Shown here piece after piece: positions 16,401-23,758 of a DNA stretch of 64,000 nucleotides. The notes under the pieces were generated by a model. That model worked only from the letters and a program-made list of their open reading frames with translations, was not told where the DNA came from and did not search any database. The DNA comes from an uncultured delta proteobacterium. GTDB taxonomy: Bacteria; Desulfobacterota; Binatia; UBA9968. How positions within the stretch are numbered: position 1 is the first letter of the stretch; every line of letters begins with the position of its first letter. A program made the translations under genes and the position numbers. The stretch lies in NCBI GenBank assembly GCA_963727625.1, contig CAVSHR010000004.1, forward strand, positions 832,001 to 896,000, read 5' to 3'.

Positions 16401-17906
16401 ATGACAACCAATGGACAAAACAACAACTGGGACAAAGAAGTCGACGTTATCGTGGTCGGCTTCGGCGCGGCGGGCGGCATCTCGGCAATCACCGCTCACG
16501 ATGCCGGCGCGAAAGTCTTGCTGATCGAAAAGATGCCTCACCCGGGGGGCATTTCGATTCTTTCCGGCGGCGGTGTCGCCTTTGCGCATAACGCCGAAGG
16601 TGCCTTTCAATACCTGAAACGCAGTTGCAACGGCACCACCCCCGACGACATCTTGCGCCGAATGGCCGAGGAAATGGTCGGCATGATCGATTGGGTTACC
16701 GAGCTTGCCAAAGTCAGCGGCACCGAGCCGAGCAAGACCGAGACCCGCGGTCACGGCACCTACCCATTTCCCGGCACCAACGATATCGACTCCATCAAGC
16801 TTAAAGATTTTCAAGCCTATTCGGAGTTTCCCTGGGCCAAAGGCCTGCGCGGCGGCGCGCGCCTATTCAAAGTGGTTTACGACAACGTGAATCAGCGGAA
16901 CATCGAAGTGATGCTATCGACGCCGGCAAAGGAACTGACCACAAACCCCGACGGCGAGATCCTAGGACTGCTCGCCGAGCACGATGGGAAATCCATCCGC
17001 ATCAAAGCGCGCAAGGGCGTGATCCTCGCTTGCGGCGGCTATGAGAATGACCCGGCGATGAAGCTGCAGCACTTCGAAGCCCAGCCGGTCTACCCGGTGT
17101 ATCTCGGCAATACCGGCGACGGCGTCAAGATGGCGCAGAAAGTCGGCGCCGGGCTTTGGCATATGTGGCATTTTCACGGCGGCTACGGCTTCAAGTTTCC
17201 GGAATTGCCGTTTGCCATCCGCCATGTCTGGGCCGGTCCGCGCAACGAGAACCGAAAAATGATCTGGATCGCCGTCGATAAATTCGGCAAACGCTTCATG
17301 GACGAATATCCGCCGGCGCCGCAGGATACCGGCACGCGGCCCTTGGAATTTTACGACGCCGATATCCAGGATTATCCGCGCATCCCCTGCTATCTGATCT
17401 TCGACGAAGAGGGACGCAAGCTCGGCCCGATCGGTATTCCCATCGTGAATGACGAGCGCTACGACGCCAACTGGAGCCAAGACAATCTCGCCGAAATTGA
17501 TAAAGGATGGATCAAGAAAGGTAACTCACTCGAAGACATCGCGGCGCAGATCGATGTCAACCCGAAAGTTCTACGGGAAACCGTCGACCGCTGGAACACG
17601 CTGTGCGGCGAAAGCATAGACAAAGATCACAAGCGCCCGCCAAAGACCATGATGCCGATCAAAAACGGTCCCTTCTATGTGGTCGAAGCCTGGCCCATCG
17701 TAAACAACACCCAGGGCGGCCCCGAGCACGATGTCGAACAGCGCGTGCTCGACCCGATGAAGAAACCGATCTCCCGTCTCTATGTCGCCGGCGAGATCAG
17801 CTCGATCTACGGCCATCTCTACTTGGAAGCCGGAAATATCACCGAGTGTTTCGTCGCGGGAAAAATCGCCGGGCAGAATGCAGCGGCCGAAAAGGGTTGG
17901 GACTAA
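16401..17906 (+). CDS. FAD-binding oxidoreductase (FAD_binding_2; 3-ketosteroid dehydrogenase/flavocytochrome c-like)
   Basis: WDKEVDVIVVGFGAAG, GGISILSGG, VILACGGY, NTGDG, NTQGG, RLYVAGE. Confidence 0.9.
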   Translation: MTTNGQNNNWDKEVDVIVVGFGAAGGISAITAHDAGAKVLLIEKMPHPGGISILSGGGVAFAHNAEGAFQYLKRSCNGTTPDDILRRMAEEMVGMIDWVTELAKVSGTEPSKTETRGHGTYPFPGTNDIDSIKLKDFQAYSEFPWAKGLRGGARLFKVVYDNVNQRNIEVMLSTPAKELTTNPDGEILGLLAEHDGKSIRIKARKGVILACGGYENDPAMKLQHFEAQPVYPVYLGNTGDGVKMAQKVGAGLWHMWHFHGGYGFKFPELPFAIRHVWAGPRNENRKMIWIAVDKFGKRFMDEYPPAPQDTGTRPLEFYDADIQDYPRIPCYLIFDEEGRKLGPIGIPIVNDERYDANWSQDNLAEIDKGWIKKGNSLEDIAAQIDVNPKVLRETVDRWNTLCGESIDKDHKRPPKTMMPIKNGPFYVVEAWPIVNNTQGGPEHDVEQRVLDPMKKPISRLYVAGEISSIYGHLYLEAGNITECFVAGKIAGQNAAAEKGWD

Positions 17907-17960
17907 CGTTTTGGGTGAGAGGCGCGCTCCGCCGCATCCTTCTCAACCCTATCGTTAGCT
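17901..17960 (-). other. Integron attC site 1 (60 nt)
   Basis: Minus strand: AGCTAAC gatag GGT(T)GAG(A)AGG(A)TGCG gcggag CGCGCCTCTCACC caaaac GTTAGTC. 5/6-nt spacers, three unpaired bases on the left arm, BrnA stop 1 nt before R''. Confidence 0.85.
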
Positions 17961-17961
17961 T

Positions 17962-18213
17962 TCAGTTTTGACCCGAAAGCTCTTCGCGCACGATCTTGCG
18001 CACTATCTCTTCCGTAAGGGGCTTCGCCGTCAGACCGAGATAGGAGTTCAGCGCATCGTTAATTAGGGTCTGATACCCCTTTCCGGTTCTCTGGGATTGA
18101 GCCTTGAAGCGCTCCAGAATTCCATCGTCGAGATAGATCGTGATGCGGGTTTTCCCAACCTGGGGAACTACCGCTCCGCGTTTGCCCTTGGAAAAGTTAT
18201 ACTCCTTCTTCAT
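17962..18213 (-). CDS. brnA: BrnA-family antitoxin
   Basis: MKKEYNFSKGKRG..KTRITIYLDDGILERFK..GKGYQTLINDAL. Confidence 0.9.
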   Translation of the reverse strand: MKKEYNFSKGKRGAVVPQVGKTRITIYLDDGILERFKAQSQRTGKGYQTLINDALNSYLGLTAKPLTEEIVRKIVREELSGQN

Positions 18214-18469
18214 AACTCCTTCTTTCCTTCGGCGTCGGTTTCCGAACCGAGATGATGCGAACATTGTCGTCCCGAGGTGTCCAGACCACAACCATCAGCG
18301 AGCCGAACGTGTTCGCACCCAGGGTCACGAAGCGTCGCTCTCCCTCAGCCGATTCATCTTCAATCGTGACTGCCAAGGGATCACTCAAGACACCATCCCC
18401 TTCGGTAAGCGAGACACCGTGCTTCTTAAGATTTGCGGCATCCTTTTTGGAATCAAAGGTTGCTGTCAC
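18197..18469 (-). CDS. brnT: BrnT-family toxin
   Basis: FDSKKDAANLKKHGVSL..GERRFVTLG..VVWTPR..VRIISVRKPT.KER..YE. Confidence 0.92.
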   Translation of the reverse strand: MTATFDSKKDAANLKKHGVSLTEGDGVLSDPLAVTIEDESAEGERRFVTLGANTFGSLMVVVWTPRDDNVRIISVRKPTPKERRSYEEGV

Positions 18470-18475
18470 TAAGCA

Positions 18476-18504
18476 AGTGTATGCATAGAATGCATATATT
18501 GCAA
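18476..18504 (-). promoter_or_regulatory. Sigma70 promoter of the brnTA cassette with palindromic operator
   Basis: TTGCAA-17 nt-TACACT, 6 nt before the GTG start; inverted repeat TATGCAT-TCT-ATGCATA overlaps the spacer and -10. Confidence 0.7.
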
Positions 18505-18542
18505 GCTCGCGGTAGAGCTGCGAGGTGGGCCCGCGAATTGGA

Positions 18543-18602
18543 AGCTAACGCGTCGGCGCTGAGCGCCCGAGACCCGCGAGCACCGCAATCCTCGGGTCGC
18601 CC
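18543..18602 (-). other. Truncated attC (right arm and loop only)
   Basis: Minus strand: GCG(A)CCCGAG..CTCGGGCGCTCAGC gccgacgc GTTAGCT. Its GTTAGCT is the exact reverse complement of the attC1 R'' (AGCTAAC). The left end is replaced by the duplicated gene segment. Confidence 0.65.
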
Positions 18603-18605
18603 CCG

Positions 18606-18965
18606 CAGATCGACGTCAATCCGAAAGTTCTTCGGGAAACCGTCGACCGCTGGAACACGCTGTGCGGCGAAAGCACAGATAAAGACCACAAACGTCCGCC
18701 AAAAACTATGATGCCGATCAAGACCGGCCCGTTTTGCGTAGTCGAAGCTTGGCCGATCGTCAACAACACCCAGGGCGGCCCCGAGCACGACGTCGAGCAG
18801 CGCGTGTTGGACCCGATGAAAAAACCGATCCCGCGCCTCTACGTCGCCGGGGAAATCAGTTCGATCTACGGCCATCTCTATCTGGAAGCGGGAAACATCA
18901 CCGAATGTTTCGTGGCAGGAAAAATCGCAGGGCAAAACGCGGCAACGGAAAAGGGTTGGGACTAA
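18606..18965 (+). pseudogene. Diverged 360-bp duplicate of the flavoprotein 3' end (17547-17906)
   Basis: Colinear over 120 codons with no indels; by hand about 38 synonymous and 5 non-synonymous codon differences; no 5' part of the gene. Confidence 0.92.
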
Positions 18966-19024
18966 CGACCGCGCTAAGCGGCCGAAGCAAGCGGCGAAGG
19001 TCCGTCTTCAGCACACGGTTAGCC
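18960..19024 (-). other. Integron attC site 2 (65 nt)
   Basis: Minus strand: GGCTAAC cgtgt GCT(G)AAG(A)CGG(A)CC ttcgccgcttgcttc GGCCGCTTAGC gcggtc GTTAGTC, the canonical VCR-like architecture. Confidence 0.88.
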
Positions 19025-20520
19025 GTCTTTTGATACGCGATCATGAATCACCTCTCCATACAAGGCTACCCTGCCATACTCTGTCAACGTATCCGCCAAA
19101 ACGAGCGGGTGCGCCTGGGTCCGGCTACAAGCCGGCTAAAGTTCCCGCCCCAATGGGCGGCTGTAGATGGTCTTAACCGTCTACTTTGAAATCATCGTCA
19201 CGATCATGATTCTGATTCGATATATATTCCGCGATCACCTCGTCGGTCACATTCCCGCTACTGCAGCAGAATTATCCCCGTGCCCACAGATGCCGACCCC
19301 AAAACTGCTTCTGCAAATGCGGAAATTCTCCCATCAACTTGTACGAACTCTTCCCCTTCAACCATTGGATCAACGACTGATTGTCACTTGCGGCGGTATC
19401 GACACGAACAGATGCAGATGGTCCTTCGCCACATGTCCCTTCAGGATCGTTATTGTGTTGCCGCAGATATCACGGATTATGTCTCTTACTCGTGTGCCAC
19501 TTCCCCCGTCAACGCTGCCCGATGGTATTTGGTCGTCCATACCAGATGCAAATGTATCTCGAATACCGTGTGTGCTCCGCGTGATACTCTTCATCCGCAC
19601 ACACTACCACAGTATAAAAATGCTAAAGCGTGCTAAAGGGAGGGTTCAACTCAGAGTGAGTGAAGAAGCGAAAACGAAGGCCGTACATCAATGCGCAGAT
19701 CTTCTGGAGCGAAGGCTGTTCCGTGGAACAGCTTGTCGCGCAAACGACCAGCCAGTTCGATGATATCGAAGTGATACTCTCGGCCCTCGATCGTCCAGGC
19801 CCTAACATGTCCGTCAACTGAGAAACCGAGTAAGTAGCGTACCGCTTTTCTCGACGGCAATTCCGCCTTGTTTTCGGAAGCAAGGCACTCGAGAACATTG
19901 AAGAGGCGGGCGATTCGAAATCTAGCGTTAGTTTCCGCCATGGCGTCATGAAGTAACGCCAATGCAAAGCTGTACGTTTCGTCTGCGCCCGCATGTGAAA
20001 ACATCTTTGCAAAAAGCTCTGGCGTCTCCAACGCCATTACGCTGGGAATACGGGTGCGGCTTCCTTCATGCTCCGGTCGAACAAGACGATAGAAACCCTT
20101 CGATCCTGCCGCGTGAACGAAGAGAGCGAACGGTATGAACGGTTGAGCGGCAGGGCATGAAAGCACATGCCGCGCCATATCAAGACGCTGCCTGACGGAC
20201 GCCTCCATATCCTTCGGATTGTCTACGTGAGGAGGAACACAAACAAGCGATACCACGGGTGAAGAGATCAGCCCACGCAATGTTGCGTCGAAGGCGCTTG
20301 GTACATCGAACGTCGCACCAAGTAGTTCGCGTGCATATCGAACCAGGAACTCAACCTGGTCGTCTGAGCCCAGGGGCTGAAGTGGAATAGCCATGAGATC
20401 GTCGTCAAACTGCACGACCTCGCGAAGAAACCCTCCAGAACACAGCTCATGCACCGCTGGTTGTCTGCAGAGAAACTGCTTTGCAGCGTCAGGAAGACCG
20501 AGGTTCTGCCAGGGGATCAC
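19019..20520 (-). pseudogene. Cassette gene encoding a HEPN-like (ApeA/MauJ-type) protein, split by IS200
   Basis: GTG start after GGAGG; ARLFNVLECLA and RDKLFH (Rx4H). The frame stops at 19651 at the IS edge; 19117-19019 reads QAHPLVLADTLTEYGRVALYGEVIHDRVSKDG* and ends inside the attC2 R''. Confidence 0.65.
19120..19655 (-). mobile_element. tnpA: Degenerate IS200/IS605-family element (tnpA pseudogene at about 19173-19594); ends approximate
   Basis: Frameshifted HTVFEIHLHLVWTTKY..ILKGHVAKDHLHLFVSIPP..LKGKSS..FWGRHLWARG*FCCSSGNVTDEVIAEYISNQ (HUH plus catalytic Y); terminal hairpin ccgccc-caat-gggcgg. Confidence 0.88.
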
Positions 20521-20542
20521 GTTGCCTCCGCGCGTCTAAGAC

Positions 20543-20670
20543 GGCTAACTATTAAGTGAACGATTTAGACTGCGCAAGCATTGGCCGCCTATTCCAAACA
20601 ACTGCGTTGCTGATAGACAATAACATTTGCGCGCTGTATCGCTTAGTTCCTGCATGAAAGTCAAGATTTA
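20543..20670 (-). other. Cassette-entry site GTTAGCC with attI-like or degenerate upstream sequence
   Basis: Minus strand ...ATCGTTCACTTAATA GTTAGCCGTCTT; these 12 nt are the reverse complement of AAGACGGCTAAC at the other end of the cassette. No proper attC left arm. Confidence 0.5.
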
Positions 20671-22125
20671 TCATCCCGGCAATTGCCGCTTGGAACCGGA
20701 ACGAATGATCTTGCCGTGAATATTCCGTGGCAAGTCGGCTTTTATGGCGATCCGCCGCGGACACTTATAAGCGTCCAGATGTTGCGCGCAAAAGCTCAAA
20801 AGCTCGCGCTCCGTCACTTGTCCGAGAACAGCCACCTCAGCCTGAACGGCTTCGTGGGTGTCTCCAACTCGCACGCCGAAGGCCAATGCTTCGCTTACCT
20901 GCGGATGGAGCCGTAAAACATTTTCTACTTCGGCGGGTTCGACGCGGTTGGCGCCGACCTTGATAAAGGGACTTTTCCTCCCAACAACGTAAACATTGCC
21001 GTCATCATCGGCTCGCCCAAGATCCCCGGAGCGCAGATAACCGTCGTTAACATTCGGATTAGCTTGCAGCGTTTTGCGCCAGAGCGCCGGGCTCTTCGCG
21101 ATGTCGAAAGTGATCTCGCCGATCTCGGGCGCAGGGAGCTCATGGCCTTCCTCATCGAGGATGACAATGGGAAACAAACCATCGATACGACCCACGGAAT
21201 CGCGCGGGCCATTCAGGTTGAATGTAAAAGCCGGGTGAATCTGACTGCCCCCGTAACGCTGGCGGATCATCAGGCCGAAGCGCTTTTCAAAGCGGTGCGC
21301 CACCGCCGGCGACAATGCCGCGCTGCCCGAAACGCACATACGGACTGAGGAAAAATCGAGTTCGTGGCCGGCCGGAATACTCGCCAGCATTTCGAAAATA
21401 AAAGGTACCGCCCAGAGAATTGTCACCCGCTCCCGGTTGATCGCTTCCGCCGCCTTCACCCGCTCGAAGCGCTCTTGAACCACGATTGAGCAGCCGACAA
21501 ATACCGGCATGATCACGTGGTTATTGATCGCCGACCCGCTGTTGTAGGGACGCGTCGAGAACAACACATCATCGGCGCGCAATTCATGCGCCGCCGCTCG
21601 CATCTCCGCACGGTTCAAGATCTGCCGGGCTGAACGTAAATACAGAGAAGGTTCGCCGGTCGTGCCGGAACTCGAAACTGCGAGAATGGGTTCATCGTCA
21701 AAGCTCCGGTGCCGCGCCCCACATTCCTGACGGTGTGGAAAACGAAACTGCTCATCCGGTCCATAGCGGAGAAAGTGCACCACGCTCGGGCAGCGGTGGC
21801 GAACCTCTGCCAAAAAGAAGTCGGATCCGGCGACCACACGAGGCCCTGCTTGTCTAAACAAGACAGGAATTTTTCCCGAAGGCAGCACGGGCAGAACCAG
21901 AAGTCCGAGCGCGCATGCGGCGAAAAACATCACGTGGAATTCGGGCGACGGCGCAATACCGATAATGATCGGATCACCGGGCTGGAGTCCGAGTGCTTGT
22001 AGATACGCCGCGCAGTCCTCGACTTCTTCTATAAGCTCTCTGTAATCGAGTCGCCTTTGCTCTCCGACAATTGCCGGCGCGGTGGCGCGCAGGCGCGCCC
22101 GCTCACTCAAAAGATCGTAGAGCAA
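20671..22125 (-). CDS. Class I adenylate-forming enzyme (acyl-CoA/acyl-ACP ligase)
   Basis: SSSGTTGEP, YGGSQ, SGDLG, VGRK..KVGANRVEPAEVE, LPRNIHGKI. Confidence 0.9.
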   Translation of the reverse strand: MLYDLLSERARLRATAPAIVGEQRRLDYRELIEEVEDCAAYLQALGLQPGDPIIIGIAPSPEFHVMFFAACALGLLVLPVLPSGKIPVLFRQAGPRVVAGSDFFLAEVRHRCPSVVHFLRYGPDEQFRFPHRQECGARHRSFDDEPILAVSSSGTTGEPSLYLRSARQILNRAEMRAAAHELRADDVLFSTRPYNSGSAINNHVIMPVFVGCSIVVQERFERVKAAEAINRERVTILWAVPFIFEMLASIPAGHELDFSSVRMCVSGSAALSPAVAHRFEKRFGLMIRQRYGGSQIHPAFTFNLNGPRDSVGRIDGLFPIVILDEEGHELPAPEIGEITFDIAKSPALWRKTLQANPNVNDGYLRSGDLGRADDDGNVYVVGRKSPFIKVGANRVEPAEVENVLRLHPQVSEALAFGVRVGDTHEAVQAEVAVLGQVTERELLSFCAQHLDAYKCPRRIAIKADLPRNIHGKIIRSGSKRQLPG

Positions 22126-22143
22126 CTGAAGCCTCCGCTGAAC

Positions 22144-22416
22144 TCAAGTCTTTCCCTGAACGCCTTCGATCTTGCGAATTACGAATTGCGCGATGGCAGA
22201 CAGATCCTGGAAGTTTTCCGGCTTGACGTCGCCATCCTCGACGGAAATGGCAAATTCAGTTTCGAGCGCGACCACGAGCTGCAGCGCCCAAACGGAATCC
22301 ATCAGCCCGCCGGCACCTAACTTAAAATCCGCAGAGACTGCGTCTTGCGCTCCTTCCGGATCCGTGAGGCGTTGCACGATTCGCGCAATGCGCTCAGAAA
22401 TATCGCCCGAGCCCAT
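22144..22416 (-). CDS. Acyl carrier protein
   Basis: GLMDSVWALQLVVALETEFAISVEDGDVKPENFQDLSAIA. Confidence 0.85.
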   Translation of the reverse strand: MGSGDISERIARIVQRLTDPEGAQDAVSADFKLGAGGLMDSVWALQLVVALETEFAISVEDGDVKPENFQDLSAIAQFVIRKIEGVQGKT

Positions 22417-22418
22417 TT

Positions 22419-23300
22419 TCACCACCAGGAGTCGCCTCGAAGCATGCGACGCCAAATCCGGGTGTATTCGGGATGCTCGTTCAGATACTTGGTGTAAAGG
22501 GCGCCGAATCCTTCCATGATTTGTTTCTTTACGGGAGCTACCGGTGGATGGATCTGAACGATGATGTTACCGCGCTTATCTGGCAACGTAAAACAAGGAA
22601 GCACCGGCGCTGCAAGCGTCTCCAGAAGCACCAGCGCCCGCGGTTCCAGAAAAAAGCTCCGGTAATCATTGCGTACCAAAACATCGGGCGATCCATCGGG
22701 CTGTCCTCGCACCGAGAGATGAACCACGCGGTTCTCCTTCAAGTGCCGGCGCGCGCTCAGTATTCTTTGCGCGTGATGCCAGAAATCGCCGCGAAAGTCG
22801 ATCACTTCCCAGCGCGTAAAATCACCATGTCCCCAGCGCTCCTCGATGGATTCACTCTCGAGAGGATTGGCCCAACGGCTTACCGGAACACCCTTTTGAG
22901 CGAGAATTGGATCCACGAGCCTGTCCAAGCCATAATAGTGACCGGACAACAGCACCGCACCACCGCCTTCATTTAGAGCACTCTGTAAATAATCCGCGCC
23001 CTCGATCCGTACGAACTGCTCTGCCCGCCACGCCCAGTTTTCCCAGGCAAGTTCCAGGTGATCTTGCCAGCGGCGATACAAGAGATGGCTGCGCGATCGG
23101 CGGCGCACGTGCGCCGGATCATGATGCTTGCGCAGCAGCCTGCCTAAAAATCGTACGCTGCGTCCCGCGTGCGGATAAACTGCGAATACGCAAGCGATTG
23201 TCGCCAATGTGACTAGAAAACACCATCGCGGAGGTGTTCGCCGGGCAAGCCAACGAAGCGGCGGCACTTTATGGAAAACTCGGGAGAAGGAAAATCTCAT
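22419..23300 (-). CDS. LpxL/HtrB-like lysophospholipid acyltransferase
   Basis: VRIEGADYLQSAL..GAVLLSGHYYGLD (Hx4D), APVLP, LNEHPEY..W. Confidence 0.75.
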   Translation of the reverse strand: MRFSFSRVFHKVPPLRWLARRTPPRWCFLVTLATIACVFAVYPHAGRSVRFLGRLLRKHHDPAHVRRRSRSHLLYRRWQDHLELAWENWAWRAEQFVRIEGADYLQSALNEGGGAVLLSGHYYGLDRLVDPILAQKGVPVSRWANPLESESIEERWGHGDFTRWEVIDFRGDFWHHAQRILSARRHLKENRVVHLSVRGQPDGSPDVLVRNDYRSFFLEPRALVLLETLAAPVLPCFTLPDKRGNIIVQIHPPVAPVKKQIMEGFGALYTKYLNEHPEYTRIWRRMLRGDSWW

Positions 23301-23354
23301 CGGTGATAATCGAAAAATCGCTGCAACCGGGCGCTAGCTAGCTCAACCAACCAC

Positions 23355-23758
23355 TCACCGCCTGTTAATCTGCTCGATGTACCCGTCGTCGTCAAGCTTC
23401 TTGAGCAACGTGTGATTGATAATGTTTTCCGGTTTGAGCGTGGCAACTACCGGGTCGGATTCGGCCATGAACTCGATCATCGAAGCGACGCCGACGGCAT
23501 CGATGTAGGGTTTCGGGCTCAGAACTTTCACCGCAGTTTGATAGTGCTCCTCCGCTTTATCGACGCAATCGAGGAGGAGATGCTTTGCCAGGACTTGCTT
23601 CTCCCGCGGCTTGTTTTTGGGGTCGAGGCTGAAGCTGTTGCCGCTGACCACGGCACTTCGACAAAAAGCTCACCGTAATTGAAGGGTCGATTTTCATCAA
23701 TAATCGCAACCCGCGCCGGTACCGCATCTGCCCAACGACTCAAAATGTCGTAAATCAC
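23355..23758 (-). pseudogene. Deletion scar: N-terminus of an AMP-binding paralog joined to the C-terminus of an ABC binding protein
   Basis: MIYDILSRWADAVPARVAII..FNYGELFVEV resembles the start of the 22125 gene; ..PKPYIDAVGV..LKPENIINHTLLKKLDDDGYIEQI resembles SBP ends. Confidence 0.7.

Follow-up and report, generated by a model that had tools for sequence, protein, structure and literature searches.

Probable remains of a sedentary chromosomal integron, with its attI site kept, at the stop codon of a flavoprotein gene in an uncultured bacterium

Results

Organization of the locus

The window analysed here is a 64 000-nt stretch of DNA (G000:C4:832001-896000) on a 1.65-Mb contig of the source genome, G000, for which contamination is estimated at 6.3%. 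It contains a flavoprotein gene whose stop codon is embedded in the attC recombination site of a gene cassette, a second cassette further on and, between the two, a second copy of the end of the same gene. The original prediction, made from the sequence of this stretch, took the gene end for a stand-alone dock at which cassettes are delivered by an integron integrase (IntI) acting in trans. After comparison with 30 relatives from the same genus (G-numbers) and with metagenome contigs (L-numbers stand for single contigs or loci), we regard the locus as probably a decayed sedentary chromosomal integron, i.e. a group of clustered attC sites without an integron integrase (CALIN) in which the attI site is kept and the integrase gene (intI) is lost. 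It is an ordinary kind of locus with an unusual recombination scar. Two of the genomes used, G005 and G035, are unpublished: the former is counted among the four relatives whose intI next to attI is intact, is one cassette-less orthologue and has five repeats resembling attC_A, the latter is only a distant orthologue, and every conclusion holds without both. The features of the locus are the following.

16401-17906, plus strand: flavoprotein gene, 501 amino acids, FAD_binding_2 (PF00890, E = 3e-43); its stop codon TAA (17904-17906) lies inside R' of attC_A
17901-17960, minus strand: attC_A; R'' AGCTAAC at 17960-17954, R' GTTAGTC at 17907-17901; 17907 and 17906 flank the crossover
17907-18548, minus strand: cassette A, ending in attC_A; BrnT toxin at 18197-18469 and BrnA antitoxin at 17962-18291 as listed, with a likely ATG at 18213
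18549-18608, minus strand: attC_X, a truncated attC; loop, L' and R' (GTTAGCT, 18549-18543) present, R'' and L'' missing
18604-18965, plus strand: displaced flavoprotein 3' end (second allele), 357-362 nt; 5-nt microhomology CGCAG at the joint (18604-18608 = 17545-17549)
18960-19024, minus strand: attC_B; R'' GGCTAAC at 19024-19018, R' GTTAGTC at 18966-18960
18966-20548, minus strand: cassette B, ending in attC_B; 289-amino acid open reading frame (ORF) at 19651-20520, C-terminally truncated, and an IS200-like remnant
19114-19650, minus strand: decayed IS200/IS605-like element inserted at the 3' end of the 289-amino acid ORF; Y1_Tnp fragment, E = 1.1e-6
20549-20690, minus strand: attI remnant; crossover G at 20549, cassette B from 20548; ~140 nt homologous to the attI of integrons in relatives
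20671-22125, minus strand: AMP-binding enzyme gene (Pfam AMP-binding, E = 7e-46); its last codons and stop lie inside the attI-homologous segment
23355-23651, minus strand: C-terminal fragment, 98 amino acids, of a substrate-binding-protein (SBP) gene; 80% identical to the G006 protein over its residues 233-330

The flavoprotein gene (16401-17906) is on the plus strand and from there to 20548 everything is organized on the minus strand, where the order is attI, cassette B with attC_B, the displaced flavoprotein 3' end, the truncated attC, cassette A with attC_A and the intact flavoprotein gene.

Two attC sites overlap the flavoprotein gene ends

Sites were assigned to the attC class on the basis of several criteria: (i) inverse core sites R''/R' (RYYYAAC ... 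GTTRRRY), (ii) an L''/L' stem with extrahelical bases and (iii) a covariance-model score; a cassette start was recognized as TTRRRY complementary to the R'' of the same cassette. Two covariance models were used, neither of which included a window site: R1 was trained on 7 attC sites elsewhere in G000 and R2 on 20 attCs from other G000 loci and the array of G019. Scanning the window with R1 gave matches exactly at 17901-17960 (36.4 bits, E = 6e-9) and 18960-19024 (33.3 bits, E = 6.2e-8) on the minus strand, and the R2 scores were 41.3 bits for attC_A and 39.6 bits for attC_B. The next best of the 19 window matches with E <= 10 was attC_A on the opposite strand (14.3 bits), followed by a match of 12.1 bits (E = 0.44). 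In the whole genome the two sites ranked 10th and 11th of 15 R1 matches (E = 6.1e-7 and 6.4e-6), and the held-out attCs beside the genome's own intI scored in the same range as the window sites (39.2 and 32.3 bits by R1). Both sites also display the L''/L' stem of the family (3-4 bp, bulge, 3 bp, bulge, 3 or more bp). Folding energy, which is weak evidence alone, gave z-scores of -2.44 for attC_A and -0.99 for attC_B, the latter not being separated from shuffles. With a sequence-only profile (nhmmer), E-values for the three window sites were 0.76-4.3. A search by regular expression and stem heuristic was dropped as evidence: it found both sites, but also 8 other window matches and 867 in the genome.

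R' of each site, GTTAGTC, is the reverse complement of the GACTAAC found at 17901-17907 and 18960-18966, and the TAA stops at 17904-17906 and 18963-18965 fall inside the two R' boxes. The start of cassette A, AGCTAAC at 18543-18549, mirrors its own R'', as does that of cassette B (AAGACGGCTAAC at 20538-20549), which mirrors its own R'' region (19018-29). It follows that both window attC sites are real, and three assertions of the original prediction are confirmed: the existence of two minus-strand attC sites, the overlap of their R' boxes with the last flavoprotein codons and the start of each cassette with the complement of its own R''. A fourth, that a further attC lies upstream, stands only in part, since attC_X keeps the loop, L' and R' (18549 to ~18608) but lacks R'' and L'' and is scored by neither R1 nor R2; its nhmmer match to the attC family has E = 0.76. 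With two model-supported attCs and a truncated one within 1.2 kb, and the nearest full intI ~478 kb off, the locus falls in the CALIN class.

The far end of the array is an attI site

The 131-nt segment at 20550-20680 recurs in 10 of the 30 genus relatives. In nine of them (G019, G005, G002, G029, G006, G027, G023, G012 and G018) it begins at the identical nucleotide, and the sequences preceding it are unrelated, all ending ..YTAAC, i.e. they are different cassette starts at one G|TT. Beyond the segment, G023, G005, G012 and G018 encode a full-length IntI transcribed toward it, the stop codons being 154-199 nt from the junction (TIGR02249 scores of 453.9, 463.8 and 444.9 bits for G023, G012 and G018, respectively; cut-off 265 bits), and only C-terminal intI remnants adjoin it in G002 and G019. 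Within the flanks fetched, no intI was found for G029, G006, G027 and G000. On the cassette side, attCs in the correct orientation are present in G002, G018, G019, G023 and G027. By exact-pattern scanning the attI core was also located in 14 metagenome contigs, among which the cassette start takes 13 different forms. Upstream of the core, 8 of the 14 have IntI or what is left of it, none was found in two contigs with more than 2 kb of DNA upstream of the core, and all 15 attC matches, spread over 8 contigs, are downstream on the right strand. Altogether, intI is absent or truncated beside attI in G000, G006, G029, G027, G002 and G019 and in contigs L081, L083, L087, L091 and L094. Since the same segment occurs in relatives with the same G|TT, an adjoining intI and downstream attCs, we conclude from these alignments that 20549-20690 is, by homology, a bona fide attI, the one used by this lineage's integrons.

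A motif, GGAATAGGCGGCCAAT, lies near the crossover (window 20560-20600), and two further copies (GGATAGGCGGCGGGCCAATAGTGGGATAGACGGCC) are in the part of attI that is lost from G000 and makes up an extra 100 nt in relatives. These repeats could be accessory IntI-binding repeats. The attI alignment contains a conserved TTGACT box, which in relatives sits between the GGAATAGGCGGCCAAT/GGATAGGCGGCGGGCCAATAGTGGGATAGACGGCC repeats.

In G000 the aligned attI homology extends for ~140 nt beyond the junction and breaks off within the last part of the AMP-binding ORF; this gene occupies the position held by intI in relatives, and there is no intI remnant there. The intI adjacent to attI that a complete integron has is thus missing here, the attI itself being identified by homology and by the constancy of its junction. 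The original prediction was right about the absence of intI from the window: of 14 TIGR02249 matches in the genome, none lies in C4:832001-896000, and tblastn with the IntIs of the four relatives gave a best E-value of 0.17. It was also right that an integrase exists in trans. The genome search revealed a resident integrase gene at C4:370957-371898 on the minus strand (467.8 bits), ~478 kb away on the same contig and with canonical attCs beside it. Its product is 71-74% identical in amino acid sequence to the four full-length IntIs above. The attI described above has no second copy in G000 and is unrelated to the corresponding region beside the resident intI. Given this divergence of the resident IntI and its attI, any present-day activity at the locus is putative.

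The idea that the gene end is a stand-alone attG-type dock fails on this attI (20549-20690), which forms the other end of the array and in relatives adjoins intI. The original prediction had itself named an intI remnant immediately adjacent as the finding that would make this an ordinary decayed integron; this is what was found in spirit, but the adjoining remnant is an attI and not an intI fragment.

The same gene end carries different cassettes in relatives

The flavoprotein is 88-95% identical in amino acid sequence to its orthologues in the 15 genus genomes with full-length matches. Gene ends were read in 17 genus orthologues: 3 have a model-supported attC overlapping ...TAA|C and 13 have no attC, their stop codon being TGA, TAG or TAA. 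The three attCs are those of G006 (39.4 bits, with a Gp49-like/HTH toxin-antitoxin cassette), G023 (35.5 bits, with a HicAB cassette; missed by R1 with default filters and recovered with the filters off) and G011 (24.2 bits, E = 6.5e-4, with two small ORFs resembling a ParE-type toxin-antitoxin pair by eye, for which no search was made). The orthologue comparison thus bears out, with covariance-model support in all three, that relatives vary in their cassettes at exactly this gene end. Two further sites, at the gene end of G025 and in a fragment of G029, look like attCs by eye, but neither model scores them and they were not counted. Of the flavoprotein genes in relatives, that of G025 (G025:C8:41704-43207) matches in two frames (residues 1-364 and 363-501), and a copy in G018 (G018:C6:76418-77684) has two in-frame stops.

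The attC at the G006 gene end is homologous to attC_A. This genome is the closest relative (95% amino acid identity) and has the flavoprotein gene, one cassette, the same attI (~250 nt) and then the SBP gene, with intI deleted. The SBP gene is the native convergent neighbour of the flavoprotein gene in G023, G006 and G011; it was not found beside intI/attI in the flanks fetched for other genomes. In G000, a rearrangement has replaced intI and most of the SBP gene. A cluster of AMP-binding, ACP and 293-amino acid genes lies between the attI remnant and the SBP fragment (window 20671-23651); in G006 similar genes are present beyond the intact SBP gene, in a different order.

The attCs and cassettes that stand at the same TAA|C in G000 (two), G006, G023 and G011 are unrelated, which is what would be expected if the G|TT of the stop codon were a stand-alone secondary (attG-like) site to which an integrase in trans delivered cassettes independently. 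An integrase is present in trans, attC-type repeats are scattered over many genus loci, IntI insertion at GWT genomic sites is known, as a passage of 10.1101/2022.09.11.507474 describes, and G011 has one cassette and no recognizable attI of this type. We nevertheless consider independent delivery very unlikely. In both G000 and G006 the array ends, on its far side, at a conserved attI with the canonical crossover as the joint, which marks it as an integron array and not as a series of insertions at secondary sites. The displaced native gene end of G023 (see below) stops at TAG and lacks an attC, and the cassettes of that genome came with a foreign gene end instead of entering the resident stop codon. 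Moreover, attI-driven turnover in arrays of one or two cassettes yields differing cassettes at the gene end, and repeated hits at a secondary site are therefore not needed. An attG product, or a single attC lacking integron integrases (SALIN), would have ordinary genomic DNA on both sides and no attI; here the proximal flank is an attI, and the distal G|TT is compatible with such an origin but not diagnostic of it.

Tandem gene ends, probably from two lineages

The two copies of the gene end (17545/17550-17906 and 18604/18609-18965) differ at 47 positions in 357 nt, 40 of which are third codon positions; 38 codon differences are synonymous and 5 non-synonymous. The displaced copy has 95% amino acid identity, and at the nucleotide level the two copies are ~87% identical to each other and to G006. 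The predominance of synonymous changes agrees with the earlier claim of two flavoprotein alleles and shows that each copy accumulated its differences within a functional gene, in a lineage of its own and under purifying selection.

The joint at 18608/18609 falls midway through an attC on one side and within the gene on the other, at CGCAG, with no G|TT there, and therefore the tandem was not made by IntI chemistry. We infer that it arose by homology-anchored, partly illegitimate recombination between versions of the locus. G023 offers an analogous structure: a full gene ending ...GACTAA|C is followed by the attC, the HicAB cassette and a 165-nt displaced fragment with the native TAG end, after which come the native 190-nt spacer and the SBP gene, the whole being flanked on both sides by unique DNA. 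The cassettes of G023 have clearly arrived along with a foreign gene end. In G029 a degraded ...TAAC fragment is located 3.8 kb downstream of the native gene. In G009, a 96.8% identical internal fragment of the genome's own flavoprotein gene is found at a contig end (L069; G009:C395:2983-3167) and is possibly an artefact.

Alternatively, the assembly might have joined two strains that differ in their cassettes into a chimera, and the tandem would then stand for a single gene end in the real genome. The estimated contamination of G000 would allow this, the fragment at the contig end in G009 may be such an artefact, and in public metagenome runs no independent contig bridges 18608/18609 with at least 31 nt on both sides. 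However, the joint is unique sequence, with a truncated attC and microhomology, on the 1.65-Mb contig, and independent assemblies show analogous internal structures (G023, with unique DNA on both sides, and G029), all of which makes a chimera improbable.

Two origins are conceivable for the position of the array at the stop codon: a single attC x secondary-site event, and simple ancestral adjacency in the G000/G006 clade. In the former case, an ordinary attI array would have been brought to the stop-codon G|TT by one IntI-mediated event in which a piece of an integron was carried from elsewhere into the space between the flavoprotein and SBP genes; the gene end would later have spread along with it by homologous recombination. 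This would fit the presence of the same attI type at different loci (G018, G019 and contig C489 of G023 as against G000 and G006), the native arrangement retained by the G023 displaced fragment (flavoprotein, 190 nt, SBP gene, no integron) and a distal junction of the exact form attC-G|TT-target. Against it, an empty ...TAAC site with native flank was found in none of the 17 genus orthologues, the diagnostic SBP-side junction has been destroyed by deletions in G000 and G006, and a junction of this form would equally result if what is now the gene end had simply been the right half of attI from the start. We hold such an event to be possible but rather unlikely.

Cassette content

The original prediction described the cargo as defence-like, naming a toxin-antitoxin pair and HEPN. 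The pair is well supported in cassette A, where two adjacent small genes match Pfam families above the gathering score: BrnT_toxin (PF04365, E = 2.8e-24, 85.6 bits versus a cut-off of 34.5) and BrnA_antitoxin (PF14384, E = 5.9e-11, 43 bits versus a cut-off of 26.1). The cassette was found at 95-99% identity on contigs from 3 other metagenome runs, where homology ends at 17903/17905 and 18549/18551 and the flanks are unrelated, one of them beginning like attI. Since the homology ends at the predicted crossover points, next to unrelated flanks, cassette A acts as a discrete mobile unit. None of the public runs contained more than 0.15 of the sampled words, and no contig from them covers the cassette B ORF or attI. 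BrnTA homologues in G026, G017, G012, G007 and G009 have no model-supported attC adjoining them; one match, in L076, is 1.2 kb off. The homologue in L075 (G026:C10:40294-40885; 88% identity) has homology limits within 1-3 nt of the cassette A boundaries; no attC was detected beside it, the contig ending 30 nt further on. It could be the source gene or a cassette that has lost its attC.

The second part of the claim, that cassette B encodes a HEPN protein, is unconfirmed: the protein has an R-x4-H motif, yet searches by profile and by fold gave no match to HEPN. The 289-amino acid protein has 33 homologues of an unnamed family, mostly 309-331 amino acids long, in comparison with which it is missing the last ~27-30 residues; it is truncated where the IS200-like remnant begins. 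R261 and H266, forming the motif, are invariant in 17 of 17 aligned sequences of the family. An Atlas lead to HEPN_Apea has a score of only 0.89 and is carried by 15% of the cluster members. The ORF matched no Pfam, NCBIfam or PADLOC family, Foldseek against the PDB returned nothing at E <= 0.001 (the C-terminal domain was not searched alone), VIA-align gave Z <= 5.2, covering residues 1-153 only, and there were weak MauJ matches in 3 of 17 relatives (best E = 0.001). No DNA match to cassette B was found in the 30 genus relatives.

The element at the 3' end of this ORF belongs to a repeat of ~540-700 bp encoding a Y1 (IS200-like) transposase, with copies at C12:552314-552870 and C2:229475-230023 (93-95% identity). 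The latter two keep the terminal sequences; the window copy has frameshifts and has lost both ends, its Y1_Tnp match spanning profile positions 26-67 of 121, i.e. neither an intact transposase nor terminal hairpins are present.

Other integron traces in the genome and genus

Three plus-strand attCs (C4:762863, 789303 and 791864) lie 40-70 kb upstream of the window (G000:C4:762863-791944), together with a 30-residue intI-like fragment at C4:790494-790583; this region resembles another integron in decay, or another CALIN, on the contig that holds the window. Two minus-strand attCs (L009 10752-10808 and 11476-11539; G000:C4:376751-377538) are situated upstream of the resident intI, opposite its array, and may be a further array remnant. 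Isolated attCs far from intI were seen at C4:1358084-1358164, C11:65984-66064, C2:111336-111393 and C2:191063-191115. The last of these is of the attC_A type, which has 34 short matches in 16 relatives and G000, and cassette-like units seem to be widely scattered in the genus.

Discussion

A probable decayed integron with a recombination scar

Taking the locus as a decayed integron, we propose the following course of events. The ancestral integron would have had an atypical architecture, with intI transcribed toward attI and the cassettes, and the flavoprotein stop codon inside R' of the last attC is the distal boundary of the array. The cognate IntI presumably inserted cassettes at attI before intI was lost, and normal turnover of such short arrays would have produced the differing terminal cassettes of relatives. 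In G000, intI has since been deleted, and what remains of attI is now joined to the AMP-binding gene; attC x attC events after the loss may still have been served by the other IntI, 478 kb away. DNA from another lineage, bringing its own form of the locus with gene end, attC and cassettes, probably recombined in, giving the tandem gene ends, one crossover being homologous and located in or upstream of the gene and the other being an illegitimate joint at CGCAG. Cassette B would later have been broken by the IS200-like element.

Several observations weigh against this scheme. In none of the genomes and contigs examined does a single contig carry the whole presumed ancestor, with flavoprotein gene, array, attI and intI together, and attI is linked to the flavoprotein gene only in G000 and G006, whereas G018 and G019 have the same attI type elsewhere; no flavoprotein match occurs in the short flanks of the 14 metagenome contigs with attI. 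In G011, a single toxin-antitoxin cassette at the identical TAA|C is followed by 370 nt unlike this attI or the downstream DNA of relatives. This flank has no similarity to G000 either, and shares only a ~55-nt repeat with G029, G014 and G008. The resident IntI shares only 71-74% identity with the IntIs found beside this type of attI, and the attI region next to its gene is unrelated, as noted above. The tandem joint, too, is the one that no independent contig bridges. Finally, the Pc promoter that transcribes the cassettes of a complete integron could not be confirmed for this attI, as a consensus promoter scan flags nothing at the TTGACT box: its only minus-strand match (20733-20705) is outside the attI-homologous segment, and promoters are not enriched (2 found versus 2.0 expected). 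The ~55-nt stretch of the G011 flank is at L048 1375-1430 (G011:C154) and is 83-89% identical to its counterparts in G029 (two loci), G014 and G008.

It is conceivable that the stop-codon G|TT is a recurrently used secondary site and that the TAAC gene end spreads between species as a portable, cassette-carrying homology arm. IntI would then bring cassettes or array segments repeatedly to the end of one housekeeping gene, and G011 would be an independent hit. We find this decidedly doubtful.

If the locus is a decayed integron, a CALIN with two attCs that resembles a secondary-site insertion becomes recognizable as an integron remnant once the attI of the lineage has been defined by comparison, which bears on what share of small CALINs are attG products and what share integron remnants. 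The comparison also defines an attI type for an uncultured genus of soil and sediment, in which intI points at the cassettes and, in many genomes and contigs of the comparison, is absent or truncated. At least two species have displaced fragments of the gene end, which suggests that cassettes may pass from one species to another through recombination anchored in an adjoining core gene as well as through IntI. The known picture of integrons is unchanged; one documented case is added to it.

Comparison with known systems

CALINs are described as clustered attCs (at least 2) without an integron integrase nearby, with loss of intI as a stated origin (10.1101/2022.09.11.507474). The window locus is alike in having two model-supported attCs ~1 kb apart and no nearby intI, and an origin by intI loss fits; it differs in retaining an attI that can be identified by homology. 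In the passage concerned, 95% of CALINs are reported not to be near recognizable intI pseudogenes, and that passage is silent on retained attI (10.1101/2022.09.11.507474). The attG sites treated in the same source are said there to differ from attI and attC in sequence and structure (10.1101/2022.09.11.507474). The crossover G|TT fits GWT, and isolated attCs are scattered in G000 and the genus, as would be the case for attG/SALIN events, but the window array begins at a true attI.

In Treponema, as one section of PMC3607928 has it, intI has an atypical orientation toward the cassettes, and in T. phagedenis attCs are left at the syntenic place after loss of intI. Both traits, an intI transcribed toward the cassettes and attCs persisting without it, are common to the two systems, which differ in phylum-level lineage and in attI; moreover, intI has decayed repeatedly in the genus studied here.

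The integron of Xanthomonas has a fixed place beside ilvD, and its intI is truncated or prematurely stopped in some strains, according to the relevant part of PMC12444791. The likeness extends to a sedentary integron by a housekeeping metabolic gene, frequent decay of intI, CALINs at conserved loci and recombination breakpoints at the border between gene and integron (PMC12444791). However, intI is what adjoins ilvD in Xanthomonas, whereas in our case the distal end of the array overlaps the stop codon of the gene, and partial duplicates of the gene end accompany it.

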